Source of the DNA: Trichodelitschia bisporula
Taxonomy: Eukaryota
Length of the DNA stretch: 64,000 nucleotides
Assembly (NCBI GenBank): GCA_010356995.1
Contig: ML996687.1
Location: forward strand, 993,803 to 1,057,802
Reading direction: 5' to 3'
Under the pieces are notes generated by a model, which was given only the letters and a program-made list of their open reading frames with translations, did no database searches and was not told the origin of the DNA. The translations under genes and the position numbers were made by a program. The stretch's first letter is position 1, and every line of letters starts with the position of its first letter. Below are positions 1 to 64,000 of the stretch, piece by piece.

Positions 1-1510
1 ATTGTCCCAAAGCTATACTGAAGAAAGGCAGAACTCTGCATCATACTTCCTCGGCGATGCCGCCAACGACTCCCTGCAACGCATCTACGGTGTCTCCTTC
101 CCAGACAAGAAGCTGATGGACGAGCATCTGAAGTACCTAGAAGAGGCTGCGAAGCGAGACCACAGGAAAATCGGCAAGGAGCAAGAGCTCTTCTTCTTCC
201 ACGAGCTCTCTCCGGGATCGTGTTTCTTTTTGCCACATGGAATGATCATCTACAACACTCTTCAGTCCTTCCTGCGGTCGGAGTACTGGAAGCGGGGCTA
301 TCAGGAAGTGAATACACCAAACATGTACAATGCTCAACTCTGGATGAAGTCCGGTCACTGGGAACACTACCAAGATGACATGTTTACCTTCACTGTCGAA
401 AAGCAGCCTTGGGCGTTGAAGCCAATGAACTGCCCTGGACACTGCCTCCTGTTTGCACATCGTGAGCGCAGCTATCGGGAGTTACCCTTGCGGATCGCAG
501 ATTTTGGTGTTCTACACCGCAACGAGGCCTCAGGTGCGCTCACTGGCCTGACACGTGTGCGGAGATTCCAGCAGGATGATACACACATTTTCTGCACTCA
601 AGACCAAATCACCGACGAGATTATTGGTCTCTTTGATTTCCTAGGCACTGTTTATGGCAAGTTCGGCTTTACTTTCAAGCTTAAGCTCTCCACCCGGCCG
701 GAAAAGTACCTCGGAAAGCTGGAAGAGTGGAACCTGGCAGAAGCCAAGCTTGAGGACGCTCTGAATCAATTCAAGGCCCAGAAAGGCGCTGAATGGGAGC
801 TCAATGTCGGCGATGGCGCCTTCTACGGACCTAAGATTGATATCACCATTTGCGACGCTCTTAGGCGGGAGTTTCAATGTGCCACCATTCAACTCGACTT
901 CCAACTTCCTCAGCGCTTTGACCTGGAGTACATGACAGCTGAGAATGCCCCAAAAGATTCTCAACAAGAAGCAAATGCTCCCGCGGAGACCGACAGCAAG
1001 AAGACCGAGCCTTCAGGGCCAAAGCCGGGCTATGCACGCCCGGTCATGATCCATCGCGCCATTTATGGTAGCTTCGAACGCTTCATCGGAATCCTCACGG
1101 AGCATTTCGGTGGCAAGTGGCCGTTCTGGCTGAGCCCACGTCAAGTGCTCGTCGTTCCGGTCATGCCTGCCGTGAATGACTATGTCGAGGAAGTCCGGAA
1201 GATCTTCCGGGATAAGGGCATGCATGTGGACATTGATGTCAGCGGCAACACCCTCCAGAAGAAGATTCGGACAGGTCAATTGGCCCAGTACAACTTCATC
1301 TTCGGTAAGGGTGCCATGGTCCTTTGTATCCGTATGCATGGCTAATGAGATGTAGTTGTGGGCGCCCAGGAGAAGGAGAGCCGCACAGTCAATATCCGAA
1401 ACAGAGATGACCCTGCCACTCAGGCCAAGGGTGAACTGGTTCCTCTTGAAGTGGCCATCGAGAAACTCACGGCACTGCGTGATACCCGGGTGTTGAAGAA
1501 TGCTATCTAG
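1..1510 (+). CDS. THS1: Cytosolic threonyl-tRNA synthetase (5' truncated by window; intron 1305-1355)
   Basis: Motifs [83 protein letters not shown] intron restores [18 protein letters not shown]; stop TAG at 1508-1510. Confidence 0.97.
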
Positions 1511-1979
1511 ACATCGGACTACAATAACCACTTGATGTCGGACACCCCTGACAATTCGGGTTTCTTCTCTAGCTGTGAGGGGCGCAGAGTTCACTGCTGT
1601 GTATGTTAGCCATCTACGGCTTACGCGGGCCCAGTCTCCCGTACTTGGATTCAAGGTAGCACATGATAATCGGTGCGAAACACTACGTCATAGGTGCGAT
1701 CACAGCATTATGTGACCTGAGAAAGCGTTCAATCGAGCGTCTCCCATGCAAGCGATGAGCCAACTTCAATTGTGACATATTTAACCCCTGACTTCAGGAG
1801 TGATACTAAGCACATGTCAGCGAACAATCATTTATTTCATGTTGCTGTAACCCGAAGATACTTTTGCATGGGCTTTAACCTATAATTGTCTATCTAACCG
1901 TGCTTCACCATCTTTATGAGCAGAACGAGAGAAAGATGTGAGCACCCTTCTCAGACCATCGGATCCTGCCCGCACCCCT

Positions 1980-4100
1980 CTAGAGAAATGCCTCGAGGTT
2001 GATCTCCAGTCCACTGACAGGATACCTGAGATGGTTAGTACGGGTGTATGGAGCCAAGGACAAGGGAACGTACGGCAGCTCGTAGTTCTTGAGCACCTCT
2101 GGATGTAGGATACCAAACTGCCCAATAGCATGCTCTTCGCCCTTGATGCGGACATGAATGGAAGCGGCATGGCCGTGGAAATACGTAGGATCTTTAATTG
2201 CGTCAGCAATGCAAAGAGATCCAAGATGAGTCACCAACCATCCAGTTCTTCAATCCAGTACTCGCTCTTACCCTCGGGTGCCTTCGATCCGTCGCCTACA
2301 AAGCTCACGTCCAGCACCAGCATGATGCGGTCCAGAAGCCCGTGCACAACTTGAAATCCGCTTGTCTTTCCATACCAGACGGCGCCCAGGCGACGTTCAT
2401 TGCGCGTCTTGCGCTCACGCTCCTCGGCTTTGAGCCCGACATCAGACACCTCGAAGACGCGCAACGGGACGGGCCGGTGCTTGTTCTCGCGCACCGTCTT
2501 CAGCAACCCCGGCAGTAAGCTGGTACGCACGACCTGGTACTCAAGGCTTTTGGGATTTTGCAGTCGGATGGCGGTTGTGCCGTCGTCCTTCCGGCGAAGC
2601 CACGCAAAGTTCTCGTCGTGCGAGCACAAAATGAGTGGCATCGCTTCCGTCCAGCCTGCCATGGCGGCTTCAACGCGCACCAGATCCGACAGCCGGTTGA
2701 TGGGGAGAGCAGCACCGACCGCGGCAGATTTGGACGGGTAGTAGCGCGGAAGGTTGTTGAAGCCGTAGGCCACTGCCAGGTCTTCCATGATATCGGCCTG
2801 GTGGAGGATATCTGCGCGAGTGATTGGGACGGACACATCAAGTGTGTCGGGATCCGCGGACGAAGACGCAGCGGAGAGGCTCATGCGCTTGAGGAGATCA
2901 CATTGTTCCTCCGGGGTCAAGGAGAGGCCAGTACACTCGTTCAGGTAAGACACAGAGGCTGACATCTTGCGGGCCGACAGGTTAGGTGTCGTCCGCGTCT
3001 CACCGTTGTGGTCAGAGATTATTGATACAGGCTCCACGGTACAAGCGTCGTCAGCGTATAGGCTGAACATGGCTACCATGATCTGATTGACAATCTCGAC
3101 CTTGGTCTTATCTGTGGCAGTGATCTCAATGAACACGTTCCTCGTGTCAAGCGTGATCTTTGAGTGGTTTCCGTTGATGATAGGCGGAAGGGACAGGACC
3201 ACATCGTTGCTATCGTAGATAACAGGATAGAGAGGCTTGTCGCGGATGATGTGAAGATAGCGGCCCAGGTGACGGTCTTTCTCGTAATAGGCCATGAGTT
3301 CCGTGCCCGTCATTTCCGTGGTCTGGTTAAGCGGCACGAATTTGATGTCATCAGGAGAGAGAGCCTTGTAATGAAAAGGTCCTTTGATGGTGTCAAGATC
3401 ATGGGTTCCGATAGAAACCAGCGTCCGCTGCCTGGCGAGATTGGCATGGAGCTTGTCCTGGAGCGCAATGAAGGATTCATAACGAGCTTTGGTGAAAGTG
3501 ATGTTGCGGATGATGGCGCAGGAAACCAGGCTACGCACATCTTTGGTCTGGCAGTTTTAGCACAGGGGAGACAACTCCCAAGGGCTCACTAACAGGTTCA
3601 TGAACGATCAGACTCTCCAACTTGCCACTCGGAGGCTCTATGAGCCGGTAGTTAGGAAAAGGTTTCCTCCCTAGGAAGACGTTGAGATTGAGAGCAATCC
3701 CCTCAAAGCACAGCATGTCATATCTTTCAAGTTAGACTTCAGTGACATCTATGGGGCGACGTGCATACCTGTTGGCCGGGATTTCGATCTTGAGCTGAGG
3801 TGGCTCCTGAACGCCGTTGACAATCGGGCGATCGGAATCGGTCGTCTGCCATGGTCAGAGTGCGCCAATGTGAAGGCGGAAAAATATACATCTTCATCGA
3901 GCTCGATGCCTGGCGGGGATAGGTCAGCCAAGCTACAGCGACCTCGCAGAGATACTTGCCGAATTCGAAGCATAGCTCATCAAATTCCTTTGTCGAATAA
4001 CTTCAAGTTTGTCAGCGGCAGCGCATATTTCTTTCAAAAAGTCGTACTCCCTGCCCAGAGCTTTGAAGAGCTCGGCTTTATCCACCGAAATAGTCGGCAT
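1980..4100 (-). CDS. FRS1: Phenylalanyl-tRNA synthetase beta subunit (7 introns)
   Basis: Spliced N-terminus MPTISVDK..EFDELCFEFGIELDED..KIEIPANRYDMLCFEG; LQDKLHANL, SLPPIING, PITRADILH, VRTSLLPGLLKT; C-terminus EINLEAFL. Confidence 0.96.
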
Positions 4101-4706
4101 CGTGAGAAGCGTCGCTCTGGTTCGTGGTGTAATTCCTATTTCCACAACGTGGCGGAATTATGGGGAACGGAGGCAGAATAAACGGACAAACACAGCAGAG
4201 TTGCAAAAGGCAGTCCTGGTGAATGTCTGTCAAGCTCAAGTTGCGATGCTTCCGGCGAATTTTGTTCGACTCATCGGACCGCAGATTGAGGCCAGTCAAA
4301 ACCCCAGGATGCCTGACAGGCTTTCGGGCATCACCCAGGCGACAAGGCACCAACATATTTTTTAAGGGACAAATGCACTCTTCTATGGCCCCGCCGAACC
4401 ATCACGAATTTTACGGCCTTCGAAATCATTTGTATCGTGCAGCACAGGGGAAGCTGATATTTGATATGCATGTCCGAGTTCGCAACCCGATCGTCCATTT
4501 TCTAGTGCACAATGCGCCATGACAAGCCAATGCAGGTAACATTATATCTTTCGCGCCATTGCCAGCATCTCCAGCCAGCAGTGTCATCCTTCCGCAGTGA
4601 TGAAACATAGCTTCAAAACAAGAATTTTCATACGTCATGCATATCGTCTTGGCATATCGTTCACTATGCATGCTTCCGTATCAACTGGATGAGGACGGAG
4701 AGATCA

Positions 4707-6347
4707 CTAGAGCGTCGGCTCGAGGGTTGTGCCACTGACGGTCGGTTAGCATCTCTCACAGTACCATAAGCTCCGAAATACATACGCAGTAATGGTAGCC
4801 CAGCCGATGAGCCTCCAATGGCGTTCTATCCGGCGAGACAGAGCGATCTTTTCACCCAACTCCGTGCAAGCTGGTGCAGTCAGGCTTAGACGGGCAATAT
4901 CTGCCTTCACACCCATAACCTTGGCACCGGTGGCCGTGCTGCCAATGTTGACCATCAGAATCTCATTCTTGGATAACTTGGCGACCTTGGCTTGCTTGCC
5001 ATCCGTAGTTTTCACGCCCAATAGCCGCCGCAACAGGAAGTAGTTGACTTCTAGCTCGGTGTAGATGGAAGGGAGGCGACCCTTGAGACCCAGGACGAAG
5101 CCAACCAGGCGATCAGCACGGCACAGAGTAGGATCCACGCGAGTTCCCACACCTATTATGCCATCAGCACTTCCTCAGTATGTTCTTAGAGTGTTACCCA
5201 CCGATGAGGCCGCCAGGGACGGCGAAGTTCAGATCGTTATGCTCAGCGAAGAGCGTCATAACGCGACTAAAGATCGGCTTGCACTTGATCTTCCCCTGGT
5301 CATCCTTGGACACGAGACCGGGACGGATCTCGATTTCATCGCCGATCTTGAGGACACCAGTCAGGATCGAGCCACCAGCAACGCCACCCTTGAGATCTTC
5401 AATCTCTGCACCAGGCTTGTTGACGTCAAAGCTCCGAATGACCATCATGTGCGGTGCGGCAGAGAAGTCGCGGACGGGGACGGGGATCCGGGTCACCAGA
5501 GCTTCATTGACCGCGTCGATGTTGAACTTCAGCTGGGCTGAAATCGGGATGACAGGGCTGCCATCAGCAACAGTACCGCGAATGAATTTGAGAATACTGG
5601 CATAGTGGGCTTCGGCACTATCCTCCTTCATTAGGTCAACCTTGTTTTGCAGAATGATAATATGATTCAGTTTCATGATATCAATAGCGGCCAAGTGCTC
5701 ACTCGTCTGCGGCTGAGGGCATGTTTCATTGCCAGCGATGAGGAGTAAAGCGGCATCCTGTCTAAATTAGAATCTAAAATCGACCGACCAAATAATGTAC
5801 TTACCATGACAGCGGCTCCGGACAACATGGTGCTCATAAGGATGTCGTGCCCAGGGCAGTCGACAAACGAGACGTGGCGAAGGAGGCGGAGGGTGCCCGT
5901 GCAGCCCTCACGCTCGCAGGGCAGAGAAACAGACTGATCGCTCTTGTAGCTGCGATAGCAGGTTGGGCGCGGGCACTCCTTGCTATCGCACTTGTAGATC
6001 TTCGCGTTCGCATATCCCAGCTTGATGGTGATGTTACGCTCGAGCTCATTCTTGAAGCGAACCGTCTGTACACCAGAGATGGCCTTGACCACGGTCGATT
6101 TTCCATGAGCGACATGGCCAATTGTGCCGATATTGATGGTGGCCTGGCGCGCAATGATTTCGGGTGACAGTGGCGTCATCTTGGTAAAGTCGATCTCGCT
6201 GGGGTGCACCTGCTCAGCCAGGTATGGGCGCTCGACCGGCGGAGGCGGAGGCTGGCTCGTCTTCATCGCAGACCGGATAGGGAGCTGCTCAGCCTCCGAC
6301 TCGGAGGAGGAGGAGTCGTCAATCTGTCGCTCGGGATCGGAATCCAT
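4707..6347 (-). CDS. GCD11: Translation initiation factor eIF2 gamma (3 introns)
   Basis: [67 protein letters not shown]; last exon [12 protein letters not shown]. Confidence 0.97.
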
Positions 6348-7299
6348 GATTGCGACTTGAGCGAGGAGCTGCGAAGGGTTTGCGTGGACGGCGTGAGGCG
6401 AAGGTGTGAAGTCGATCTAGTACCTCCGTAGGGGGGGTGCGGGGAAGTTTGGGGGGGATGGTCCTGGCAGAAGGTGGAGTTTCGTGAACTCAGTGAAAGG
6501 TCGTGGTGCTTGGATGAGGGGCAAGTTAGCGGGGGATGGGATGGCGGAGGAAGTGGTGGGTGAGGGATCGAAATTTAGAGTCACAGGCCTTGGGCTGGTC
6601 ATTGCTTGTAAGCGCCACATTTATTCTACCGAGCGCCACATATGGGGAAGGCACCCAGGTGCACGGACCACAACTTGATGCCAACGCCCATGATCTGTAG
6701 CACTGCTCTAGGTAAAGAAGTCAATGCGCAGTGCCTCCGCAAAAACGAGCCAAGTGAGGGCGCTGCGACTTTTGTCAAGTGACACTCACAGTACCACTCT
6801 CAGCCGCTACCCAACCGCTCTACTTGCGTCACTTCCTGTGACTTTGCTGCATACTTCGTACTACGTACTGTACTCCGTATGGTACCCCGTACTCCAACAA
6901 ACAACGGCCGAAAGGGCTTCGCCATCCATATCTTCATCATTACGGGTATCTTCTGACGGCTCACAACCTCGCAAATTGCCGAGATCTTCAAAGCGGAATG
7001 ATTCCTAGTGACCCTTATCGAGTACTCTGTCTGCACCTCGATCTCTACATGGCCGCCCGCAGCCGACAATCGGCCAATCCGTACCCAATCCCGCGTGCTG
7101 TCTTTCCCATTGGAGAAATTTCACCCCAAAGGCTGAGGTGGCTGCAAATTGACTACGTAGATGGTAGAAATCAAGGTTCTGGCATGCGTTTCAGCTGGCC
7201 AAAGTTTTATATCCCATCCCCTACCTCGTTGCTCTTCGACTTACAGTAGGCATCTTTGCGTCAACTTTCCCATCGCCTTTCTCCCATTTAGTCTCACAT

Positions 7300-8338
7300 A
7301 TGACGCGAAAGAGTATATTACCCACCTTCAACAAGCGTCAGGAGGCTGGCCCTCCGGCAGCTCCTACAGACCGACGTCTCGATCGCCTCAGCTTCGTGCC
7401 AAACTGGATTCGGAATGAGATAATTGCCTTCCTCGGCGAGTTCGTCGGCACATTCATGTTTCTCTTCAGCGCATTTGCTGCTGCTCAGGTCGCCAATGCT
7501 TCAGCGCCGACCACTGATAGCCAAACCGACACCCATTCCCTAACGCAGATTCCCAATACTTCGAATCTTCTTTACATCTCCTTGTCCTTCGGCTTCTCGT
7601 TGGCCGTCAGCGTTTGGGCCTTTTTCCGCGTCAGCGGTGGCCTTTTTAATCCTGTTGTCAGTTTGGATGGGGTACTACTGCATGTCCTCACTGACCCGTT
7701 GCTAGGTTGCACTCGGTCTTCTCCTGATCGGCGGCATTGCTCCTCTCCGAGCGGCCAATGTCTTCATCGCCCAGCTCATTTCCAGCATAGTCAGTGCCGC
7801 CATAGTCTCAGGTCTTTTTCCCGGGCCGCTCAACGTGTCGACTACACTCGGGGGCGGTGCTACCATCACTCAAGGCCTTTTCATCGAGATGTTTTTGACA
7901 TTCGGCCTAGTGTTCACAATCTTCATGCTCGCGGCCGAGAAACACAAGTCAACCTTTCTGGCCCCCATCGGCATCGGCCTCTCTCTCTTCGTTGCCGAGC
8001 TTACCGGGGTATACTTTACAGGAGGCGCCCTGAATCCCGCACGCGCCTTCGGGCCTGCCTGCATCACTGGCAACTTTCCCGGCTATCACTGGATCTATTG
8101 GCTGGGCCCGGTCATGGGCTCCTTGTTGGCCGTCGGCTTCTATAAAACCATAAAGTACGCCGAGTACGAGACGGCCAATCCGGGCCAGGATCTGGACGAA
8201 CAGGAGCGAGAGATGTTTGTTCCACCGTCCGACCCCGTTGTCGCTGCAGACGTCCAGAGACCCAATGTAGCAGCTGAGAGGATTGCCTCGGGCTCACCGC
8301 CGAGAATCTCGTCGCTGAGTGAGGAAATTAGGAAGTGA
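7300..8338 (+). CDS. Fungal orthodox aquaporin, MIP family (intron 7657-7705)
   Basis: GEFVGTFMFLF, YISLSFGFSL, SGGLFNPV, LFIEMFLT, AAEKHKSTFLAPIGIG, GGALNPARAFGP, HWIYWLGP. Confidence 0.93.
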
Positions 8339-8617: not shown

Positions 8618-10774
8618 CTACTTGTGAGGAATCCCTTCCTCGGGGACCGGGACGACGTCCACAACTTCAGCCGCAGCCTTGTCCTGCTGTTTGCTAGTGT
8701 CGTCCTTCATGAAAGGGAAGGTCAAAACTTCTTTGATGCTGTAATGATCTATGAAGCAGCGTTAGTTTCCGAATCAAAAATTCTATTGCTCGAGGTAACT
8801 CACCAGTCAAGAACATGGTAATACGGTCAATGCCCATGCCCCATCCACCAGTTGGCGGCAAGCCGTACTCCAAGGCTTGGCAGAAAGTCTCATCAATAAG
8901 TTGCGCCTCATCATCGCCCTGTGCCTTCTGGTTGGCCTGTTCCTCAAAGCGAAGGCGCTGGTCAAAGGGGTCGTTCAACTCCGTGTATGCGTTAACAATC
9001 TCCTTCTTGCATACAAAAGCCTCGAACCGCTCACACAAGCCCTTCTTGCTGCGGTGGTACTTGGCCAAGGGACTCATCATCTGCGGGTGTCCCACGATGA
9101 AGGTCGGATTGGTGCACTTCTCCTCGATAAACTCACCCACAAGGCGATCGAGCATGCGCGCGTTCGTCAGAGGGGGCGGGCAGTCGACGTTCATCTTCTT
9201 GAGCACACGCTTCAGGAACTCTCCCGTCTCGGCTGTGTGGAGCTGGTCACCAGGGGGGAAGGTCTCCCCTACCGCTTCCTCGAGGGCTGGAATCATCTCG
9301 ATGCGCTTCCAGGGCTTCGCCCAGTTCACCTCGTAAACCTCTCCGTGCTGAGTGTGGAACTTTGTTTCGAAGCCACCCGTCACAGCCTGGACCATGCCCG
9401 AGACCATGTCTTCGGTCACCTCAAGGACGTCGTACATGTCCGCGTATGCCCAGTAAAACTCGCATGTCGTGAACTCCGGGTTGTGCGTCAGATCAATGCC
9501 CTCATTGCGGAACTGCCGCCCAATTTCGTACACGCGATTGAGTCCTCCCACGACCAACATCTTCAGGTATAGCTCCGGTGCTATCCGCATGAAAAGATCC
9601 ATGCCAAGTTCGTTGTGGTAGGTTTTGAACGGCTTGGCTGTGGCGCCGCCGGCAATCTTATTCATCATGGGAGTCTGCACCTCCAGGAAGTCCCGGGAGT
9701 CGAGGAACTGTCGAATGTACTTGACGATCTTGGATCGAGTAATGAAAGTGTTCCGAGTCGAATCGTTCATGATCAAATCAAGGAATCGCTGCCTGTGACG
9801 CTGCTCTTGGTCCTTGAAGCCGTAGTGGACCGTTGGCAGCTGACGTAGACACGGGGTCAAGAGCACCACTTCGGTTGCGAAGATGCTCAGCTCTCCAACG
9901 TCCCTCGACTTCGGCTGAGTACGTCCTGGATAACCGACCACGCCAATGATATCTCCTCGCTGAAGGTTCTCATACTTCTCGATCGGAGCGGTAGAGTCGG
10001 TACCTTCGAGCGTCTGGCACATGACCTGCAGCATGACGCCCTCTTCATTGGGTCAGCGATGACCTCAAGACCAGCGAGAAGTCGCAATTACCTGTTTTGA
10101 CATCGTAGAAGCGGAGATTCTTGCCATATGACCGCTTGGTTATGATCCGCGCACCCACACGAACCTCAATGTCCTGGGCCGATTCACCGTTCCCAAGATA
10201 GTCGAACCGCTGATGGAATTCGTGCGGGTTCGTAATGACGTTGAATTTATGGGGATATCTGGATTACTAGGTCAATTCTGCTTGTTTTCAGTCGGATATC
10301 CATACGGGTCAGGTAGGTGGGTCTCCCGCAACTTGTTGATTTCGCGACACCGCATCTCAAAATATTGCTGGCAAGGTCAGCATGCCGTTCGCCACCTGCT
10401 GCAGACGGCAAAGGACCCGAGACAAGCAAGCACAACAACAGCAAAGTCAAGCTCACATTTGGGTTCAGGTCCGCCATATCAGTCTCCGCTTTCTTCTTCT
10501 CCGGCTTTGGGGGCGCCGCAGCAGCCTTCTCAGCCTTCTTCGCGGCGGCTTGCCGAGCCTTCTGGCGCTTCTTGACTACGGGCGTTCAGTTTGTGCTTCT
10601 CCCAAGAAGCCTCATGAGAGCAGACTCACGCTCGCTCTTCGACACCATTTCCCCCGTCTCAGCGTCTAGTTGCATATTTGGCTGGGATTGCTCCCCAGAG
10701 GCTTCCGGGTTAAGGCTCGTAGAAGCGACCTTCTCGGCCACAGCCGCTACAGCTTTCTTCACAGCATCGGCCAT
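8618..10774 (-). CDS. KRS1: Cytosolic lysyl-tRNA synthetase, class II (about 5 introns)
   Basis: [73 protein letters not shown]-terminus EEGIPHK. Confidence 0.97.
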
Positions 10775-13335: not shown

Positions 13336-14237
13336 CTTGACGCACTAGTTCTCCGGCCGACTCAAGGATTGCCCGATACGCTGCTGGCGTCGACTGCGAA
13401 AGGCGTCGTGCGCAAGCGGTGCCCGTTGGTTGCGACCGCGAAGACCCAGGGCGGCTTGAGCGCCGGCAGGTTGCCACCTACCGTAGCGGAACGACGGAAT
13501 ACCTCGATCTTGCAAAGCCGTATCTGTATTTGAACTGCGTGCTCGATCTACCGTGTACTTGCGTAGCGGAGCACAAGGGTTGCGATTCCGCTGCGGTATT
13601 TGGGTTCCTTGGGGGGAGGATGCACTTGGATGGTGCGAAGCGGCTCGAAGGTTTGGAAGGGGTATTCTCGCTGACTAAGACCCATTCACCTCTGATTCGG
13701 CTTGGCGGCTTGGCAAATATCCGCCTGCCCAGTGTACCTCCGCACTTTCGTACCAACGTACTGTGGTAGCAGGTGGTCAGCGACAGTCTAGGAATAGAAG
13801 ACACTCTTCCTGAACATGCTTGAATGTCCTGGTATCCTCAAGTAATGTGTCTTCACTATTGAAGAGTTGCTGAGGTGGATCCCGGCCTGTGAGCACGTGA
13901 CACCCGGTTTACTTGGCACAGACCATACTCTTTCATTATTGCCTCTGGCGGCTTCTGGGAGCATGCCTGCATGCCTCTCTCTCTGCCTGAGGCCCTGGGG
14001 TGTTTGCCTAAATTTATTCCAGGCAGCAGTCGGATATATGTCCCAGAGTACGCAGTAAGGGACTACCAGTTCCCCTCTCTCACATCACAAGCTCAACTTA
14101 GCCAACCTTCCTCTCCCTGCCAGCTTTACACATTACTGACCGACCCCGCACTGCGGTTCGACAGTTTCGCCATCGCCTCTGAACCTACTGTTCCCTAAAG
14201 AGCTTTCTACGTCGCGTCTTCCGACGCCGCCGCCATC

Positions 14238-17476: not shown

Positions 17477-17483
17477 TGACTCA
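17477..17483. promoter_or_regulatory. Gcn4/CpcA site TGACTCA upstream of AsnRS
   Basis: Exact consensus; a second TGACTC at 17338-17343. Confidence 0.6.
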
Positions 17484-17514
17484 TCCAACGCTCCTGCACG
17501 TCCGAAGTGGTCAA

Positions 17515-54224: not shown

Positions 54225-54754
54225 GGTGGAGTATGCGCCCGTGGGGCTCGCAAATCGGATTGCAAGCGCGAAGGTCGATGGCAAAAGTCCCCTGTTGCCC
54301 GAAGCTCGCGAAGCACGGCGAAAGGTCCTCGGTACTCGGTGAAACTTTGCTCCAGTTGACCTCGTCAAGCAGGCGTCTCGACAAAAGAGCTTTCTCGGGT
54401 CAAATTGAAGCTTCGGTGCTGATGTGCACAAATGGAGATACAGTATTCTTTGGCTTATAGGGGAAACAAAGTGGTGTACACAAAGGTGAAATGCATTTGA
54501 AATCGCCTGTTTAAGATTGAGAGTGTTCCACTGTTCTGTGCTGTACTCGTACAGTAACCGGGCAGCAGATGCTCTAATCCGTACTGATGACTGAACAGAT
54601 ACCTTTCCAACTTTACTACGCCAATCTAGCGGTGAACTGGGCATCAGTTGGGTAACAACTTTCCATCAATTGAAGAAATTTTGAGAGGCGCAAAAAGTGG
54701 AACAAAAGGCGGTTTGATGAAGGAGCAGAACTGCAAAATAGCAGTTGCGGCCGA

Positions 54755-55117: not shown

Positions 55118-57580
55118 ATGTCCGGGCCGAACCCAATATCACGGCCTCGGCCGCTTCGTGAGCGAATTGGTGGTCTCAGGAGCTCTCCCAGCCTTAGAGG
55201 TTCACCCGCTCCTGCTCCTCCAGTGAGTCTTATCACTGCTGTCGCCGCACGCCGCAAGGCAGCTCGTACATGCCCGAACTGTTCGACTCCAGACATCGGC
55301 GAACTTGAAGGCCAGGTAGTGTGTTTGAACTGTGGTGCTATCATCAGTGACTCTGTCATCGTCAACGAGATCGCCTTCGATGAAGCACCGTCTGGAGCTG
55401 CCCATGTCCAAGGAACAACTGTTCATGATGGCCAGCGCGGTGCCAGGTCGGTAGCTGTCGGCTTTCGGAGAGGGGGACGGTCGAGTGAGGAAACGGCAGA
55501 GAACGCTCTTCGCATCGGTAAGTGTTAGCCCGATGTCATCCCTGATTTACGCGCTCACGAGTACCAGGCAAGGAGGAAATCACTCGTCTGGCTAATGCTC
55601 TCCACATCAACGGAATGGTTGAGAAGGCTTACATGCTCTACCAAATTGCCCGCATCCATCAGTTCCAGCGGCCGATTAAAGAGAATGCCGCCATCTGTCT
55701 CTATGTTTCCTGCAGACAAACCAAGGGTAATACGACTATGCTCATTGACTTTGCCGAGCAAATTCGGGTCAGTTATCCCTATGAATCCGTTTAAATTTTG
55801 ACGCTAACATTGCTAGCAAAACGTATATGACTTGGGTGCCACATACAAGAGTTTCATCAAGGCCGTATCTCTCGAAGATGAGCTCGATCCTATCCCTATC
55901 ATCGAAATTGAGCCCCTACTCCTGAAGTACGCGAAACGATTGGAGTTCGGCGATGCAACTCGGCAAGTGGCTGCCGACGCCGCTTCCATTCTCGCCCGTA
56001 TGGACCGCGACTGGATGGTTACCGGACGTCAGCCCTTCGCCCTTTGCGGCGCATGCTTGATTCTGGCGGCCCGCATGAACAACTTCCGCCGTTCAATCCG
56101 CGAAGTCGTTTTCATTGTCCGTGCCGGCGATGTCACCATCTTGAAGCGTCTCAAAGAATTCCAACGTACCACTGCAGGGCGCTTGACCGTCCAACAGTTT
56201 CGCGACGTTGGCTTGCGTCTCAAAGAGCAAGCTGATCCGCCTTGCTTTACGGAGAAGCGTTACAAGAATATGCGGAAGCGCAAGCGGGGTGTTGCCATGT
56301 TTGACGTGGGCACGTCTACTCGCGATGCCACCGTCGACCTCACTGGATCTTCGACTTCCGGATCTCCGGCTCCTAGGCGCGATGCGGACGGGTTCGTAAT
56401 ACCAGATGTGCCAATTGATCCATCTCTTGTCTCCCCGGCAAATAATGCTGAGGCAGAAAACAGAGCACCTACTGCGCAAATGGCAACTCGCGTGTCTACC
56501 AAAGGTTCTAGAACTTCCAAGGGTACCACTCCAGACGGGAGCCCGGAAGTCGCAACTCCAGAGGAACAAATGGACGAGGTGCTTGAGGAAATCGAAGGAC
56601 CATCGACTAAGAAGCGGCGTACGCGCAAGAAGGAGAAGCCGGATCCCCTAGTTATCCAAGCGGAAGACCTTCTAGATGATAATGAACTCGGCGAGCTCGA
56701 AGCGCAAATTAGCCAGATCGTTGACCGACACATTACTGAAGACGCCTACATCCTTTCGGAAGCGCGAGCCAAGGCTCTTGCCGACGCGGAAAAGGCTAAA
56801 GTGGCGGTCGACTCCCGAAGAAGGAAGGTTCGCCACACTGAGGAAATCGACCCAGAAGAGTTCGACGACGATCCTGAGGTGAACAATTGCTTACTCAATG
56901 AGCGCGAAGCCGAAGTCAAGGAGCGCATCTGGGTGACTTCGAACTGGGAATGGCTGCGCGAGCAGCAAGCCAAGGCACTTGCTGCGCAACTGGACGAGGC
57001 GAAGGGCAAGAAGAAGAAGACGCCGGGCACAAGCCGCAGACGTCTTAAGGATGACAATGACCAGGAACCCGCGGCGACGCCTGCTGAGGCTAGTCGTCGT
57101 ATGTTGGAAAAGCGCAGCTACCGCGCGGCTTTCAGCAAACATCTAAACTATGACAAGCTTATGAAGATCTATGGGCGGGACGAGGGCGACGACGATGACA
57201 ACGACGACAACGACGACAATGCTAGTCGGGCCACGAGCCCTGCACAGACGGTGGATGGGAGCGTTGAGCCCGAATCTGCTCCGGAAAGATTCCAGATCAC
57301 TCGGACAAAAAAGCCGCAGCAGCAGCTTCCAACTCCCGCGACGACCCAAGAAGCATCTCGGGTAGTGGACCGCGACGAGGTGGTAGAGGAGGAAGATGCT
57401 GACATAGGAGCACCAAACAACACCGGAGGAGAAGTCGAGATTCTGGAAGAGCTCAGCGACCTTGACGACGAGGCTGAGCCGGGAGTAGACGATACCATGT
57501 TGGATGATGATGATATGGAAGATGCATTTGAATCCGAGGATGAGGTGTATGATGATGAGGATGGTGAGGAGTTCGGCTAG
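55118..57580 (+). CDS. BRF1: TFIIIB subunit Brf1 (2 introns)
   Basis: Zn ribbon CPNC..CLNCG, cyclin folds, RMDRDWMVTGRQP..GACLILAARMNNFRR, DDDPEVNNCLL..KERIW, FSKHLNY. Confidence 0.95.
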
Positions 57581-57820: not shown

Positions 57821-59653
57821 TCACTTTTCAATCTTTAGTCCCTTCACGCCCTGCGACACTTCACCAAAAGCCGGCAACGAGGCCGCCCCGGCTCCCTCGG
57901 CAACCGCCTTCTTCGCTTCAGTCGGCGCTTTTACGCCCGCCTTGGCCTTTGCCTTGGTGCTGGTGCTGTCCTTCGGCAGCTCACGCACCCAGGGGAGGAA
58001 CTCGGGTTGGCCGGGGATGTACTTCCGCAGCACTTCGGGCACAATCATACCGTCCGGCGTCTGGTAGTTCTCCATGATGCAGCACAGGCACCGCTCTGTG
58101 GCCGTCAACGTAGAGTTGAGCGCGTGCACATACTCCTTACGCGCGGAAGTCTGCTTCTTGATACCGAAGCGGATTTCGAGCTCGCGCGTCTGGTAGTCTG
58201 TGCAATTCGAGCACGATACAAGTTCCTTGTACTCGCCCTGGAAGGGGAACCATGCTTCAAGATCGTACCTATTCCAGTTTAGCGATGTGAAACTATCGAC
58301 TCAGGGGGGTTCTCACTTCTTGGCTGCCGCGTTATTCAAGGCTCCCGAAACGATTGCCACTACGCGATATGGCAGCCCAAGGGACTTGTAGAACTCCTCG
58401 CTGACATTGATCATGTCCTCGAAAGCTTCCCATGACTTCTCGGGGTGCGTAAGGAGGAATTGCTCAATCTAAAGCTGGTCAGCTAAGGTCCTGCATCACG
58501 CCACAGCACTTACCTTTTCGAACTGATGTATGCGGAAGATGCCCCACGCGTCCTTCCCGTGAGACCCTGCCTCTTTCCGAAAGCAGGTGCTATAGCCGGC
58601 ATACTTGACGGGGAGATCAGCCACTTGTAGCCACTCGTCCGAGTGCTTCAAAAGGTCAGCAAACGTTCATAGCACGGATAAGGTGAACCTCACTAAGGCT
58701 GAGAGGGGCTGTTCACTCGTGGCAATCAAGTACTTGTCCGACGTCGGATCGTTGTCGTCCTCCGTGACTTTGTAAAGCTCTTCGTCAAACTGCTCCAGTT
58801 GCGCTGTCTTCGCCATCTGGTCTCGTAACATCATGTAAGGTGGGGCGTTGGGCTGGTATCCTTTATTGTAAAGGAACTCGAGGCCGTAGTTGACAAGCGC
58901 CACTCCGTTGGTCAGTACGTTCGAGATAGCGGTTAGGAAAGCTTACAATTGAGAAAGAGTCCCATTCCCGTCAAGCAATAGCCACGATGTCCCACAACTT
59001 TCACACCACGTTCCGAGTCGTAACCGCCGAGACGATGAAGAACCTCATGATGTGACAAGCAGTCCTTCTTCTCCACTGTCACGCCCTCAGGAACCCATTT
59101 GCGGATAACCGCGTTGTCGTCTTCGGTCAAGCTGCACGGCCTGTTTCAGCACACATCTTATGGATGGGGTCAATTTTCACTAGTTACCTGAATGGGACAG
59201 AGTCATGGACGTAGTTTCCGACGGTTTTCGCCTTTGAGTGAAGAAGCTTGAGCTTCTCATGCGCGACGTCCTCCTGCGCCTTCTTTTGATTCGTAAGCTC
59301 CTCCTTCTCTTTCAGCAAGTCGTCTGCATCCTGCTTAGCCTAAGGAAGTCGTAGAGTCAGTGGATAGCGGCAAGTGAGACCTCGACAGGCGGACCTTTTT
59401 CTTCTGGCCAATTTGCTTCTGGATTTCGTTGATCTTGCTACCGATTTGTGTGGCGGCGTATTGCGCTGAATGTCAGGATTAGCCTTTTCTTATACCTCGG
59501 GGCTACAGGTGCAAACAAACTTCTCCTATGGTCCTCGAACATCTCAATGATCTGGTCTACAATCTCGACAGGAGCCCCGCGTCGGCGCTGCGACTCCCGG
59601 ATCTTCTCCGGGTTGCCACCACGCTCGACGATGAAGTCCTGGATTTCAATCAT
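57821..59653 (-). CDS. SES1: Cytosolic seryl-tRNA synthetase (about 7 introns)
   Basis: [83 protein letters not shown]. Confidence 0.97.
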
Positions 59654-59768
59654 GATGAAAATAAGGTCGGACGGCTGGTATGAGAGAACTGAGGTATGTT
59701 GTAGGGAGCGGAATGGGAGGACGCGAGGAGGTACGATGTACTTGAGGTGTCTGGAGGGGCAGTTCGGT

Positions 59769-59775
59769 TGACTCA
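59769..59775. promoter_or_regulatory. Gcn4/CpcA site TGACTCA upstream of SerRS
   Basis: Exact consensus about 116 bp upstream of the ATG. Confidence 0.6.
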
Positions 59776-60263
59776 GCCCTGGCTTCGCAGCCCCTCGGTT
59801 GAAAGCGCCACATCCACGCCACCTTAGGTGCGCCACGGCTGAAACCTCATGCGCCAGCTCTCGAGTTTGCTCTGCTTTTTGAAAAACCTAAAACATCTCT
59901 CATCACGCATGCTTTTTGGTGCTATCTCTCATCCGGCCTTATACGGAGATTGTTGCAGTTTGCATTTCATTTAGGTCATCAGCCGTCCTAATGACGGACC
60001 AGTCGTAGCCAATTTAAGGCGACTATTCCAGCAGCATTCCGAGAACTCTTTCACTTTAGCATTCCATTGTATTCGAAAGCATTATTTCCAACCTCACGAT
60101 CATCCTGCGAGTCATTTCAGCCTGCTCTTAGAAGATATCTTCTCGTACCTCGCCCAACAGCTGAATCCTCGACTCATCAACTATCTCATCAACTGTCCCA
60201 TAGGACTTAATGTTTGAACCGACAGCAGCCCAGCACTCTTTGGTGACGTTCGGTGACCCCATT

Positions 60264-60284
60264 AATAATAATAATAATAATAAT
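60264..60284. repeat. (AAT)7 microsatellite
   Basis: Seen directly in the sequence. Confidence 0.9.
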
Positions 60285-60296
60285 AGCTTAATTACG

Positions 60297-60824: not shown

Positions 60825-62543
60825 CTAGTTCTTATCGAACCTGACGGCAGGCTGCTCCTCCACAAACTTCAGATCCACCTTATGGCCGAGCAACTCACGA
60901 ATATTGCTAACCTTGTACCGGATCATCGTGGGCCGTTCCAGACTCAGACCGAAACCATACACACGCATGTTGGGAGGCAGGCCCATGGGCTCTAGCATCT
61001 CTGGCCGGAACATCCCACTGTTGCCAATTTCAACCCATTTCCCAAGGCCAATGTGGTAACCGAAGATCTCCATGCTCGGTTCGGTGTAGGGATTGTATGC
61101 TGGCTTGAAGCGGAGGTCTTCGATGCCCAGCTTGCTAAAGAAGTCTTCAAGGAACTTCATCAGCCCGCCCAGCGTCAGTCCGAAATCGGCGATGACGCCC
61201 TCGACTTGGTGGAATTCGGCCAAGTGGGTGGCGTCAACACTCTCGTTGCGGAAGACACGATCGATCGAGAAGTAGCGCGCCGGACGCGGGTCTTCGGCCA
61301 AGCGGTGTAATACCCATGTGGATATAGCAGTTGTGTGCGTGCGTAGCACTAGCCTCAGACACTCGTCCTCACTCCAGTTGTACCGATAACCAATTGAGCC
61401 AAAGGCACCCTTCTCGTGGACTGCACGAACCCCATCCCAGTACTCTTGGTAGTTGCGCGGCTTGGTGGGGCGGGGTGTGGGTTCAGCGAACAGCTTCCGG
61501 GAACTCTCTTCCATGGCGGCCATCGCCTCTTCAGCATGTGGATCTGGGCGCGGGCGGTCCGCTCGAGGAGGATCTGAAATGAAGAAGGTGTCCTGCATAT
61601 CACGGGCTGGATGTTGCTGGGGAACGAAGAGAGCGTCGAAGTTCCAGAAACCAGAGTCAACGAAGCTACGACCCTGCGTTAGCGGTTCTCAGCTCTGCAC
61701 GAAGTTTGGAGGACGCACTGGTTCGTGGGCATCTCGACGAAGCCCTGGTTGAAGAAGATATTTCGGAACTCTGCGCGAACCTTGTTCAGTGGATGCAGAG
61801 CTCCAGGATTTTGCCCTCCACCCAGTGCCTTGAAGTTGTATGGCTTGAAGTTAGCCGTCTGCCAGGCACCGCTCGCAAGCATGTCGGCCGTGATGTCGGT
61901 AACCTCCACAGGGATCTCCCGCGCGTACTTCGGGCCCTTGCGCGCGACATAGCTGATGACTTTGCCGACTGTGACAAGCTTGCGCTTTTTAAGATCCGCG
62001 AGCGTCTTAGCATCCGGCGTGGCCTTCGACTCTTGAATCTGTGCGAGCAGCTCCCGAGCAGTATCCTGAACACTTTCCACGACCGATACTAAAAATTCAC
62101 CCTCCTTTTTGATCCATTTATTCCGCATGGCTTTGCCCTGGCCGACACCGGCTGATTCGCCAACTTCATTCTACGCGCAGTCAGTTATCTGCCGCTATGC
62201 GAGCAAAAGAACTTCATACCCCCAACTCCTTCATCGGCAGGCGCCCTTTGCTCTTCACAGCCTCCCAGACTTTGAATTCGTGGCTCCCGGACGCAGCAAT
62301 GAGGGCTCCCTCCTTAGTCAAGAGGACGCGCTCAGATTCTTTGGTATCGTACTCCACCATGGCACGCGACGCCAGCCGATCCAGAGCTGCCTTAACATCT
62401 TGTTGTTGGACCCCGGGAAGCGCTTCATCAGTTTTGATTTCCGGAGTGCTGGAGAGGAGATCGAGGACCTTTTGCGTTGTCGAGGCCGTATCTGCGACGG
62501 GCAGTGGGGGAGGAACCGGGGCAGGCCCGCGCGTGCCAGGCAT
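60825..62543 (-). CDS. FRS2: Phenylalanyl-tRNA synthetase alpha subunit (2 introns)
   Basis: [78 protein letters not shown]. Confidence 0.97.
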
Positions 62544-62701
62544 TGTGGTGTGCGGGAACAGGTGAACCTGTTACAATTCTAATCCCGATTTGCTCACTTG
62601 AGGAATAATTGTTGGGCGGAGCGGGGGAAGTCTGACGCTAAGTTGGGGTAGAGTTCGAACGAGCTTCAGTGACTCTGTGGGTTCGTGGAGCTTTTTGGGG
62701 G

Positions 62702-62708
62702 TGAGTCA
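62702..62708. promoter_or_regulatory. Gcn4/CpcA site TGAGTCA upstream of PheRS alpha
   Basis: Exact consensus about 160 bp upstream of the ATG; extra TGACTC at 62670-62675. Confidence 0.6.
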
Positions 62709-63030
62709 GCCCGCACGCACGGGCGCCGGCGGGGTAATATGGGCAGGAACGAGGCTTGACTAGCCTTGCCGCACATAGGGCTGAATGCGCCACAACATCA
62801 TTTTGAAGCTCGTTTCTATTGGAGTTCAGGAAGCAAACGTCAGAGATGGCTCTCGTACCCGTTCTGTAGTAACAAGTAAAAACACCCGACAGGAAATATC
62901 ACATCTATGATGTGAGTTTCATGGTCGAGCTTTACATCTACCGAACCATGCAAAATCAAAAGTGATATAGAACACCGTTGAACCACTTGTGTTTGCCTGC
63001 ACGTGCATCGGAGTGCCCACACAGCATTGC

Positions 63031-64000
63031 CTACATCGCACCCGCTTCTTGCTGCGACTGCTTCCACTTCTGTGCCATAGCCAGCAGGTTCGAAAGCTTG
63101 GCCTCCCGCTCGTCGTCGGCAGGGAATAACCAATCCATGTACTCCTCGAAAGTATCGTCGTCCAGCTTCCTCCGCTTCTTTACACGGCTGGGCATCTGCT
63201 TTTCCACCTTTGCCAGATCTGCGGCTGTTCCGTGAGTAGTCTCGAACGACTTCCACGCATTGAGAAGAACCACACGCTGTTCATGGGTTAAACGTAGTCC
63301 ATATGCAAAGGTTTGAAGGGGGCTCACCTCTTCTTTGAGTTCCTGTTCTTTCATGACTTTGTAAGCCCTTTCGAAGACAGCCCTTGCACGCTTTTTGGCA
63401 TCATTGCTAATGGGCTTCTCCTCATCCTCGTTCTCGTCTTCCTCTTCGCCTTCGTCCGGAACGTTGATCTCAAAATGAGCGTAAGATATCCAGACCTTGA
63501 CATGAGATGTCTTCTGTAACAGCCGCTCGTACAGCTGCCGAGCGCGGTCGTATTCTTGTTGCTCAGTCTCAAAGTCGATGAACTCCTTCCAGACAAGTTC
63601 GGGCATGTCGAGCATTTCCTGATCAATGGCAAGCTCGAAGATAGCGCGAGTGCGATCGGAATCGTCGAGACCGCGTTCTAGTTCGGCAAAAGCCTTCCAG
63701 GCTTCCGCATTTGCAGGGTTCCAGCTGACGTACTTTTCATAGAGCTTCCGACACCTGTCAAATTCGTAGAGCTTGATCTCAAGCTCAATGTACCCTTTGT
63801 ACAGCTTGTCCTTCGGGCACATGCCAATAGCCTGACCAAGGGTTTTCCGAGCTGCCTGGAGTTGCATTTGACGTATCTCGAATCGCGCCTTGTTCAGCCA
63901 AACCTTAGCGAAAGTGAATTTCTTGTGAGGTATGAGCTTGATGCACTCTTGGTAGATCTGAGCCACCCGGTCCATGTCCCGAGGGGTCGTCTCCTCCCAG
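63031..64000 (-). CDS. CLF1: Crooked-neck/Clf1 (Syf3) NTC splicing factor, 3' part only (1 intron seen)
   Basis: [70 protein letters not shown]. Confidence 0.94.

Follow-up and report, generated by a model that had tools for sequence, protein, structure and literature searches.

The window that we analyzed, a 64-kb stretch of the genome of Trichodelitschia bisporula, a free-living, dung-inhabiting member of the Dothideomycetes, contains 26 genes, which are listed in Table 1 in their order along the DNA, from ThrRS to SEC27 in the first half and from PPM1 to CLF1 in the second. They were identified with Pfam profiles on stop-to-stop open reading frames (ORFs) and lie in mixed orientation at about 2.46 kb per gene, with spacers of ordinary length. 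Judged by protein family and by the closest match among solved structures, 22 of the 26 have counterparts that we take to be essential in yeast on the basis of SGD and its deletion project, with SEC9 counted as a lead only; the earlier note on this DNA had likewise given 22 essential orthologues, and its core observation holds. Ten of the 22 belong to translation, five to transcription, three to splicing, two to the proteasome and two to secretion, and 18 of all 26 genes have a role in the production or processing of RNA or protein. PPM1 is presumably non-essential in yeast. Ordinary genes, for example those for transport, regulation, secondary metabolism or functions particular to the lineage, hardly occur, and no mating-type gene, biosynthetic gene, tRNA or shared repeat was found within the 64 kb.

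Table 1. Genes of the 64-kb window; positions are counted from its first nucleotide
Gene product	Position	Strand	Support (Pfam unless stated)	Remarks
ThrRS, cytoplasmic type (THS1-like)	1..1507	+	tRNA-synt_2b, HGTP_anticodon	C-terminal part only; continues past left edge
PheRS beta (FRS1-like)	1983..4157	-	B3_4, B5, tRNA_synthFbeta, PhetRS_B1	several exons
eIF2 gamma (GCD11-like)	4749..6416	-	eIF2_C, GTP_EFTU, GTP_EFTU_D2	at least 3 exons
Aquaporin (MIP family)	7168..8335	+	MIP, two exon ORFs	not essential-type
LysRS, class II (KRS1-like)	8697..10585	-	tRNA-synt_2	
TFIIA large subunit (TOA1-like)	11553..13477	-	TFIIA, three exon ORFs	CTG/CAG repeat at 12165-12197
PRP6/Prp1 U4/U6.U5 tri-snRNP factor	14238..17036	+	PRP1_N, HAT/TPR repeats	one exon
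AsnRS, cytoplasmic type (DED81-like)	17341..19432	+	AsnRS_N, tRNA_anti-codon, tRNA-synt_2	
RPN12, proteasome lid	19829..21673	+	CSN8_PSD8_EIF3K	span is the transcript, from run contigs
eIF2 alpha (SUI2-like)	21886..23292	-	EIF_2_alpha, S1	
Proteasome beta5 (PRE2-like)	23652..24595	-	Proteasome	at least 4 exons
Probable SNAP-25/Sec9-type t-SNARE (SEC9-like)	25073..26517	-	ESM-Atlas	lead only
COPI beta' (SEC27-like)	26771..30400	-	COPA/B propeller, TPR_COPA_B, WD40	many short 5' exons
Leucine carboxyl methyltransferase (PPM1-like)	30574..31958	-	LCM	covered by X3/X4 contigs
RPB5, RNA polymerase common subunit	31926..32846	+	RNA_pol_Rpb5_C, RNA_pol_Rpb5_N	
3-Hydroxyacyl-CoA-dehydrogenase-family enzyme (lambda-crystallin-like)	33112..34407	-	3HCDH_N, 3HCDH	not essential-type
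eRF3 (SUP35-like)	35976..38477	+	GTP_EFTU, GTP_EFTU_D2, GTP-eEF1A_C	Gln-rich N-terminal region
eIF2B delta (GCD2-like)	38869..40730	-	IF-2B	
RPC4, RNA polymerase III (RPC53-like)	41173..42501	+	RNA_pol_Rpc4	
S-adenosylmethionine synthetase	43341..44530	+	S-AdoMet_synt_N, _M, _C	small first exon not located
RPC1, RNA polymerase III largest subunit (RPO31-like)	45429..49988	-	RNA_pol_Rpb1 domains 1-5	
PRP22 DEAH-box splicing helicase	50565..54644	-	S1, DEAD, Helicase_C, HA2, OB_NTP_bind	long N-terminal extension
BRF1, TFIIIB subunit	55205..57577	+	Zn_Ribbon_TF, TFIIB repeats, BRF1	
SerRS, cytoplasmic type (SES1-like)	57824..59887	-	tRNA-synt_2b (three exon ORFs), Seryl_tRNA_N	several exons
PheRS alpha (FRS2-like)	60828..62570	-	tRNA-synt_2d, PheRS_DBD2, PheRS_DBD3	
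CLF1/crooked-neck splicing factor	63034..64000	-	HAT repeats	C-terminal half only; continues past right edge

Three Pfam scans were made, covering the 204 of 359 stop-to-stop ORFs of at least 70 aa that reach at least 95 aa, 238 ORFs of at least 50 aa lying outside the positive exons, and 112 ORFs of 25 to 49 aa in the six largest gaps; the third contributed nothing but the last exon of TOA1 and that of DED81. The earlier note had counted 27 genes, nearly all of which were recovered, and our count is 26, with its superoxide dismutase absent: the segment at 59.9-60.8 kb looks non-coding, no scan gave a Sod_Cu or Sod_Fe match, and no signature motif appeared in six frames.

Orthology was refined with ten PDB sequence searches. 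ThrRS and SerRS matched cytoplasmic enzymes better than mitochondrial ones (543 versus 333 bits and 190 versus 58 bits, respectively), the best match of AsnRS was cytoplasmic AsnRS (453 bits), and LysRS matched chains (643 bits for the best, 568 bits for another) that are all lysine--tRNA ligases or lysyl-tRNA synthetases, named without compartment. eRF3 was separated from Hbs1 (324 versus 141 bits) and eIF2B delta from the alpha subunit (259 versus 62 bits); the best match of RPN12 was yeast Rpn12 (79 bits), proteasome beta5 matched yeast Pre2 (171 bits), CLF1 matched Clf1 (243 bits), cwf4 (357 bits) and a best chain at 463 bits, and the best matches of the 3HCDH-type dehydrogenase reached about 95 bits. 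The best relatives of PRP22 are named PRP22/DHX8, at 79-88% identity over residues 400-1367. The ORF pair listed as SEC9-like is a probable t-SNARE and a lead only: it has no match to Pfam, its ESM-Atlas neighbours are SNAP-25/Sec9 t-SNARE clusters (scores 0.93-0.95), and its last exon has a codon-usage score of 0.27.

Non-random gene content

The gene content of the window is far from random. At assumed backgrounds of 9%, 20% and 50% essential genes, the probability of finding at least 22 among 26 is 1e-19, 2.7e-12 and 2.7e-4, respectively, and of the roughly 21 genes for aaRS subunits, six lie inside this one 26-gene window (P ~9e-12). We consider the likelihood negligible that chance produced this picture, or that a normal window merely seems enriched because only conserved genes are recognizable. 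Gene finding does rest on Pfam, which favours conserved families, but the intergenic gaps are too small to hold more genes of an ordinary kind and the ORFs in them have non-coding scores, the identical method applied to the SEC27 flanks of relatives yields ordinary families together with long ORFs without any family, and P stays at or below the last of the values above for any background up to 50%. In addition, SEC27 and RPC1 have GenBank accession numbers that are 9 apart, which, provided that accessions run in gene order, places 8 annotated models where we see 7 genes and leaves room for at most about one extra model among eight; the earlier statement that the window holds no hypothetical proteins is nearly right, with one extra annotated model possible in this interval.

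Contiguity, copy number and transcription

The window is contiguous, real nuclear DNA of T. bisporula. Its contiguity, which the earlier note had wanted confirmed, is borne out by an independent assembly of public reads, in which a single 48,164-nt Logan contig (run X1, depth 449) reproduces the 20 kb at 19001-39000 with 0 differences; from its coordinates, this contig should reach from ~12.2 to ~60.3 kb, and it ends at low-complexity repeats. An artefact that joined genes dispersed in the species, whether through chimerism of the assembly or through a rearrangement confined to the culture that was sequenced, strikes us as very improbable. It would find some room in the fact that all DNA evidence carries one organism label and that runs X1 and X2 are one sample, possibly the source of the assembly; against it stand the use of a different assembler for the 20-kb match, the X2 contigs of 9.5, 2.4 and 14.9 kb that tile the same interval and break inside genes, with no break at a gene junction, and the X1 depth, which resembles the 414 of another contig. 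Contigs from a second study (runs X3 and X4) also bridge two gene junctions, RPN12/SUI2 and RPB5/HADH, and a chimera would not select essential genes.

At the protein level, the SEC27 exons are identical to a protein named Trichodelitschia bisporula coatomer beta', RPC1 is 100% identical to a protein named T. bisporula RPC1 on a 2,035,263-bp contig, and the 932-aa PRP6 protein has an exact copy in the protein collection, on a contig of the same length. SEC27 and RPC1 are single-copy, each with one T. bisporula entry among the best 120 matches. The block is apparently transcribed, judging from the intron-less X3/X4 contigs, which omit at least 15 short GT..AG or CT..AC intervals, as spliced transcripts would, including 21275-21329 (GT..AG) in RPN12, two short CT..AC intervals in eIF2 alpha, three intervals of 48-59 nt in proteasome beta5 and four GT..AG intervals in eRF3. 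In the SEC9-like gene, an X4 contig spans 25536-26517, with a joint at 25478/25536.

Gene order in relatives and possible origins

The synteny comparison that the earlier note had proposed was run on relatives, where none of 80 related fungal contigs (43 with at least 5 kb of flank on one side; flanks summing to 722 kb) has SEC27 next to any of the 25 remaining genes of the window. The orthologues of SEC27, RPC1 and PRP22 lie on different contigs in 35 of 35 clean same-species comparisons (15/15, 12/12 and 8/8), a test that relies on contig sizes reported for protein clusters and on comparison assemblies many of which are fragmented. The SEC27 flanks in 11 of the 80 loci hold 46 family-bearing genes, an ordinary mix, and relatives have kept small syntenies that are absent from the window, as with glutamate-5-kinase, ATP23 and SEC27 in two loci (L003 and L028). 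By these sequence comparisons the arrangement in the window looks derived, and because of this some directional process would be required.

It is conceivable that repeated deletions or breaks passively stripped out dispensable genes and left the genes whose loss is lethal adjoining one another, with no selection for clustering. The remaining genes are indeed chiefly of the undeletable class, and mixed orientation, the lack of a common regulatory motif (below) and ordinary spacer lengths are what one would expect without a functional tie. Evolution, however, never removes conserved non-essential genes either, and these are far more numerous than the essential ones; they too should persist, yet the window has only 4 among 26. 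Moreover, since SEC27, RPC1 and PRP22 lie on separate contigs in every comparison species, deletion inside one ancestral region is insufficient. The spacers of the 64-kb window contain no transposon, pseudogene or AT-rich debris, and run contigs totalling about 29-31 Mb speak against a genome that is reduced overall. On this evidence, we regard passive stripping as rather unlikely.

Alternatively, the whole scaffold or genome might be ordered by function or indispensability, and the window would then sample a far larger compartment. The block runs off both edges, as the earlier note had stated, with essential-type genes at the left (ThrRS) and the right (CLF1) and no boundary seen. Essential orthologues number roughly 900, as an order of magnitude, and 900 genes at 2.46 kb would fill ~2.2 Mb, near the size of the 2,035,263-bp contig, which is arithmetic and not evidence. 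Such a compartment nevertheless appears distinctly unlikely, as no architecture of this kind is reported in the searched text and supplement rows of the paper publishing the T. bisporula genome.

Our best explanation, which we hold tentatively and rate somewhat short of probable, is that the window represents an island of housekeeping genes, specific to this lineage and maintained by selection. Many rearrangements would have gathered constitutively needed single-copy genes from different ancestral chromosomes, and the resulting block may act as a permanently active chromatin stretch that is intolerant of rearrangement, in which a break, insertion or deletion anywhere would strike an indispensable gene and be purged by selection. 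Such an island could secure steady expression and the co-inheritance of stoichiometric partners, those held together here being both PheRS subunits, eIF2 alpha and gamma with eIF2B delta, and RPC1, RPC4 and BRF1. We infer this assembly route and these chromatin and recombination properties, and likewise that selection, not a passive process, made and maintains the island. No account of such an island was found in the literature searched, in line with the earlier note, which knew of none.

The promoters gave no sign of co-regulation, an observation that speaks against the island, and the earlier idea of a co-regulated domain is unsupported: in the 18 promoter segments of the window, no k-mer was shared beyond the level seen in dinucleotide shuffles, and motifs of the RRPE type were almost entirely lacking. 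GATGAG occurs only 20 times in the window promoters, versus 11.9 expected. We also know of no efficient mechanism by which many essential genes could each change chromosome with their introns and promoters intact, a lack that likewise counts against the island reading.

Comparison with known gene clusters

Pal and Hurst are said to have found in 2003 that essential genes of yeast cluster in regions of low recombination. There, too, essential genes lie closer than by chance and selection on gene order is the proposed cause; however, the yeast clustering is a weak genome-wide tendency with small runs, whereas T. bisporula has one block, with 22 of 26 genes, that is not shared with relatives. The yeast DAL cluster, which Wong and Wolfe reportedly showed in 2005 to have formed by adaptive gene relocation, was similarly assembled in one lineage by relocating genes from dispersed sites, but its six genes all belong to a single catabolic pathway that is dispensable, with arguments from toxic intermediates or epistasis, unlike the indispensable genes from several processes found here.

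Clusters of housekeeping genes in mammalian genomes were reportedly described by Lercher et al. in 2002. Such clusters, or RIDGEs, bring broadly expressed genes into common chromosomal domains and are megabase domains of modest enrichment defined by expression (PMC3108615), whereas the T. bisporula island is defined by indispensability. Co-regulated ribosome-biogenesis and ribosomal-protein genes pair adjacently, and functional clusters occur in the Dikarya, according to two papers (PMC10218983, PMC2871058); here as well expression-machinery genes adjoin and stoichiometric expression is the proposed benefit, but those cases involve two or a few genes that have promoters or motifs in common, in contrast to 26 genes with no motif detected in T. 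bisporula.

The ancestral collinear blocks of fission yeasts, as described in PMC8537764, are enriched in essential genes, have ~8 genes on average and show conservation across species, with 53% versus 42% essential genes for GO classes within blocks and already 26% for non-enriched GO classes. The published selective benefits of clustering essential genes are weak effects with far smaller enrichments, the fission-yeast blocks being one example, which tells against the island reading. Relative to these blocks, that of T. bisporula is specific to its lineage, has at least three times the length and consists of essential-type genes to about 85%.

Gene content and orthology

All stop-to-stop frames of the window were translated (359 ORFs of at least 70 aa), and Pfam was searched with three ORF sets: 204 of at least 95 aa, 238 of at least 50 aa that all lie outside exons already positive, and 112 of 25–49 aa from the six largest gaps. 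Across the whole window these scans gave a total of 26 genes, at 2.46 kb per gene, in the following order: ThrRS, PheRS-beta, eIF2-gamma, aquaporin, LysRS, TFIIA large subunit and PRP6 (1–7); AsnRS, RPN12, eIF2-alpha, proteasome beta5, a SEC9-like gene and COPI beta' (SEC27) (8–13); PPM1 (PP2A methyltransferase), RPB5, a 3-hydroxyacyl-CoA-dehydrogenase-family enzyme (HADH), eRF3, eIF2B-delta and RPC4 (RPC53) (14–19); and SAM synthetase, RPC1 (RPO31), PRP22, BRF1, SerRS, PheRS-alpha and CLF1 (20–26). By function, ten genes belong to translation, five to transcription, three to splicing, two to the proteasome, two to secretion and four to other categories; transcription, splicing and translation thus make up 18 of the 26, and the remainder are proteasome, secretion and unrelated enzyme genes. 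The earlier note had counted 27 genes by including a superoxide dismutase, for which we found no Sod_Cu or Sod_Fe match at any of the three ORF sizes; six signature motifs, sought in all six frames, were likewise absent. The stretch at 59.9–60.8 kb holds short frames only, which look non-coding by codon usage. The SEC9 assignment is provisional: an ESM-Atlas lead connects the gene to Sec9/SNAP-25 t-SNARE clusters (0.93–0.95), it is covered by run contigs and its last exon has a coding-like codon score, but it has no Pfam match. Elsewhere the gaps contain no further recognisable gene; the scan of 25–49-aa ORFs did no more than supply TOA1 and DED81 with a final exon each, and gap ORFs score like non-coding controls on a codon-usage measure that separates the two classes only moderately. 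In GenBank, SEC27 and RPC1 have accession numbers nine apart, which, if numbering follows gene order, places eight annotated models where we see seven genes, leaving room for about one small hidden model at most. The window is uniform in composition, with a GC content of 0.51–0.57 and no AT-rich island across all 32 two-kb windows, and it contains no N letters, no tRNA genes, no Rfam family at gathering score and no repeats longer than 43 nt.

Ten sequence searches against solved structures were used to separate essential paralogues from dispensable relatives. ThrRS matched cytoplasmic enzymes at 543 bits versus 333 for mitochondrial ones, and SerRS at 190 versus 58; AsnRS matched the cytoplasmic form (453 bits), and LysRS gave 643 bits for the best lysine--tRNA ligase chain and 568 for the next. 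The eRF3 gene scored 324 bits against eRF3 and 141 against Hbs1, eIF2B-delta 259 against the delta and 62 against the alpha subunit, RPN12 79 against yeast Rpn12, and proteasome beta5 171 against yeast Pre2. CLF1 reached 463 bits with its best chain, 357 with S. pombe cwf4 and 243 with yeast Clf1. The dehydrogenase resembles lambda-crystallin/3HCDH enzymes (about 95 bits). From their families and structure matches we take 22 of the window genes to have essential yeast counterparts (SGD, deletion project), which are dispersed over the yeast chromosomes.

Contiguity and arrangement in relatives

The SEC27 exons are identical to the coatomer beta' protein of Trichodelitschia bisporula, the RPC1 frame shows 100% identity to RPC1 of this species, and the SEC27, RPC1 and PRP6 proteins are all recorded on a single contig of 2,035,263 bp. 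We aligned contigs from four public sequencing runs with one organism label (X1 to X4) to window positions 19001–39000. X1 covers all 20 kb with 0 differences in one Logan contig of 48,164 nt and depth 449, whose coordinates suggest a span of about 12.2–60.3 kb, with a CTG repeat at one end and a low-complexity run at the other. In X2, which shares its sample with X1, contigs of 9.5, 2.4 and 14.9 kb tile the same interval; their ends, one set by a minor T>G variant and others in SEC9, fall within genes and not at gene junctions. The contigs of X3 and X4, from another study, skip intervals of 47–59 nt bounded by GT..AG or CT..AC (at least 15 listed, and 15 more), as expected of spliced transcripts, and our guess is that these are RNA runs, although no run is recorded as such; they bridge the RPN12/SUI2 and RPB5/HADH junctions. 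The deposited assembly may itself derive from X1 and X2, so that the support they lend is that of an independent assembler working on a single isolate. Searches for junction repeats or linkers that would point to concatenation or mobile-element capture returned short low-complexity matches only, and no window scan matched Pfam transposon, captain-like or reverse-transcriptase families. Overall, we regard an assembly artefact as highly improbable.

Metagenome contigs were then compared by means of a 14-sequence SEC27 alignment, which matched 597 stretches, 533 of them encoding relatives. The best 80 of these 533 (51–83% identity) were kept; 43 loci have at least 5 kb of flank on one side or more, 21 on both, and the flanks total 722 kb. 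With 39 exon ORFs covering all 26 window genes as tblastn queries, SEC27 was recovered in 80 of 80 loci and the other 25 genes in none. The synteny in related species that the earlier note had asked after was not found: no locus among the 80 has a window neighbour beside SEC27, and the gene order is not shared. Conversely, small syntenies common to the relatives are absent from the window. Among the metagenome contigs, two from different fungi (L003, 1477–8225; L028, 7276–12761) carry glutamate-5-kinase, ATP23 peptidase and SEC27 in the same order, three (L011, L021, L035) have a mannitol dehydrogenase close to SEC27, and two (L005, L038) share a kinase and ADA2.

We also compared the recorded contig sizes of named orthologous proteins within species, many of the comparison assemblies being fragmented and several of their scaffolds 1–3.7 Mb long; rows with multiple strains or assemblies were left out (for example Elasticomyces, Emmonsia, Paecilomyces and the SEC27 row of Coniosporium). 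The same contig size was found in 0 of 15 species for SEC27 and RPC1, 0 of 12 for RPC1 and PRP22 and 0 of 8 for SEC27 and PRP22, so that the three genes are on different contigs in all 35 comparisons, whereas in T. bisporula they lie within 27 kb. Since the tested orthologues are apart in relatives, the arrangement appears to be derived, its genes coming from different ancestral chromosomes. The nearest relatives are distant, the next best SEC27 being 73% and the next best RPC1 63% identical.

Excess of essential genes and its possible causes

Given 22 essential-type genes among 26, the binomial tail probability comes to 1e-19 for a background of 9%, 2.7e-12 for 20% and 2.7e-4 for 50%. For six of about 21 aminoacyl-tRNA synthetase subunit genes to fall in a single window of 26 genes, P is ~9e-12; the 9% background and the total of 10,000 genes behind these figures are assumptions rather than values measured in T. 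bisporula. For an empirical background, SEC27 flanks were annotated in 11 fungal metagenome loci. The first batch comprised 122 of 213 ORFs from five of eight loci (SEC27-overlapping ORFs and all of L014, L026 and L051 were left out), the second 80 of 155 ORFs (leaving out SEC27-overlapping ORFs, every one of the 44 from L031, and the L003 portion mirroring L002). In these flanks we counted 46 genes with an assigned family, besides several long ORFs without one; the families include permeases, a sugar transporter, kinases, ADA2, Sin3, a Zn2Cys6 factor, mannitol dehydrogenase, MTHFR and TIM, as well as DHODH, ATP23, glutamate-5-kinase, NDUFA5, mS21, THO1, aquarius, PDI, ORC4 and others. By our own reckoning two to about five of the 46 are of essential type, and for practical purposes chance and recognition bias are excluded as explanations of the excess in the window.

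Clustering of essential or housekeeping genes is so far a faint statistical signal, and fungal gene order outside metabolic clusters is usually treated as nearly neutral. The clustering studied by Pal and Hurst in 2003, reportedly a weak tendency, is a local excess of essential genes over the background of their own genome, located where meiotic recombination is low; in the window the excess is huge against the assumed backgrounds and against the flanks of relatives. Conserved collinear blocks keep their order across species, unlike the window, whose order is absent from the relatives compared; according to a passage in PMC8537764, such blocks in fission yeast average about 8 genes and are 53% versus 42% essential. 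Passages in PMC10218983 and PMC2871058 describe expression-machinery genes as adjacent pairs. The earlier note knew of no prior description, and our full-text literature search, which had most subscription journals outside its coverage, found none this large, pure and lineage-specific.

The co-regulation proposed at first gains no support from the promoters. Across 11.6 kb in 18 promoter segments, the sharing of 7- and 8-mers never went beyond that seen in 200 dinucleotide shuffles. GATGAG was counted 20 times versus 11.9 expected; PAC is weak, and RRPE-type motifs are nearly absent. In this the window differs from RiBi/RP pairs and metabolic clusters, which have a shared cis motif or co-expression.

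Three other kinds of system were considered and rejected. Self-resistance copies in a biosynthetic cluster do not fit, as no window scan matched a core biosynthetic family (PKS, NRPS, terpene synthase, P450), and SEC27 and RPC1 are not extra copies (a single T. bisporula entry each among the 120 best matches). Mating-type regions can shelter essential genes, as the Cryptococcus MAT locus does, but the window has no MAT-type family, with no Pfam match to HMG-box, alpha-box, homeodomain or pheromone-receptor families. Finally, such a density of essential genes would be normal in highly reduced genomes (microsporidia, nucleomorphs), an explanation that the earlier note had allowed for. Compaction, few introns and small size are not what we find: the window has many introns of 47–59 nt and the gene spacing stated above, the run contigs sum to 29–31 Mb, long low-complexity protein extensions likewise speak against reduction, and the proteins are those of a dung saprobe of the Dothideomycetes, among which a passage in the genome paper of the species (PMC7082219) places T. 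bisporula.

Once chance, recognition bias and artefact are set aside, the arrangement needs a directional process. Our tentative reading is a lineage-specific housekeeping island, made and kept by selection. Such an island would be a constitutively active, break-intolerant domain, which could give indispensable single-copy genes steady, balanced expression and let them be inherited together. Passive distillation, in which a region is pared down to the genes that cannot be deleted, seems unlikely to us, because hardly any conserved non-essential gene is present and the genes are of multi-chromosomal origin. Alternatively, the ordering might extend over the whole scaffold or genome, with the window as a sample of it; at the window's density all essential orthologues would occupy about 2.2 Mb, near the size of the contig, yet this is arithmetic and not evidence, and we think this ordering quite improbable. 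If true, it would be of greater interest. A bolder reading, which we consider possible but rather doubtful, is adaptive relocation, in which a large share of the indispensable gene-expression genes, once spread over several ancestral chromosomes, moved into a single compartment that might take up much of a 2-Mb chromosome. Such a compartment would be a eukaryotic counterpart of the bacterial core chromosome as against dispensable replicons, a natural "essential-gene array" that leaves the remaining genome free to vary. The remaining probability goes to causes not yet thought of.

With about 85% of its 26 genes indispensable, the block would, if the island is real, be the strongest case yet for eukaryotic genes sorted by indispensability, be it by selection or by an unknown mutational process. 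It would offer a tractable system for old ideas about expression-noise domains, the relation of recombination to gene order, the dosage balance of complexes and protection from deletion, and synthetic genomics, which seeks to build essential-gene arrays, would gain a natural model for them.

Local sequence features

Several smaller features were recorded along the way.

Local features of the window (positions in nt)
Position	Location	Observation	Possible reading
12165–12197	TFIIA large subunit	CTG/CAG run encoding a Gln-rich tract	
23141		Minor T>G in X2, depth 26.9 of 198.8, giving a small assembly bubble; absent from X1, X3 and X4	
23298–23385	Between eIF2-alpha 5' end and PRE2 3' end	Inverted repeat, 27-nt arms (85% complementary), 34-nt spacer; an X3 contig runs across it	Putative dispersed short palindromic element, alternatively a UTR hairpin
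~28043–28078	SEC27	12 residues read through by the open frame, absent from the deposited protein	In-frame intron of ~36 nt implied by the sequence comparison
29431–29541 and 29736–29879	SEC27 5' region, minus strand	X3/X4 joins with 15 and 14 unplaced letters	Putative micro-exons of ~14–15 nt, each between two short introns
36539–36567	eRF3 N-terminal region	CTG/CAG run encoding a Gln-rich tract	
50565–54644	PRP22	~400-residue N-terminal extension ahead of the S1 domain	

The helicase part of PRP22 has no T. bisporula entry among its 120 best matches (the best is 88%), although the collection includes SEC27, RPC1 and PRP6; a deposited model of the gene could be lacking or could differ. An intron of about 36 nt, as putatively present in SEC27, would be unusually short for a fungus; a piece of an X3 contig stops nearby, at 28036. 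A 22-nt piece of one arm of the inverted repeat recurs in another contig of the same genome, 12.6 kb long. The Gln-rich N-terminal region of eRF3 recalls, to our mind, the prion-forming region of yeast Sup35.
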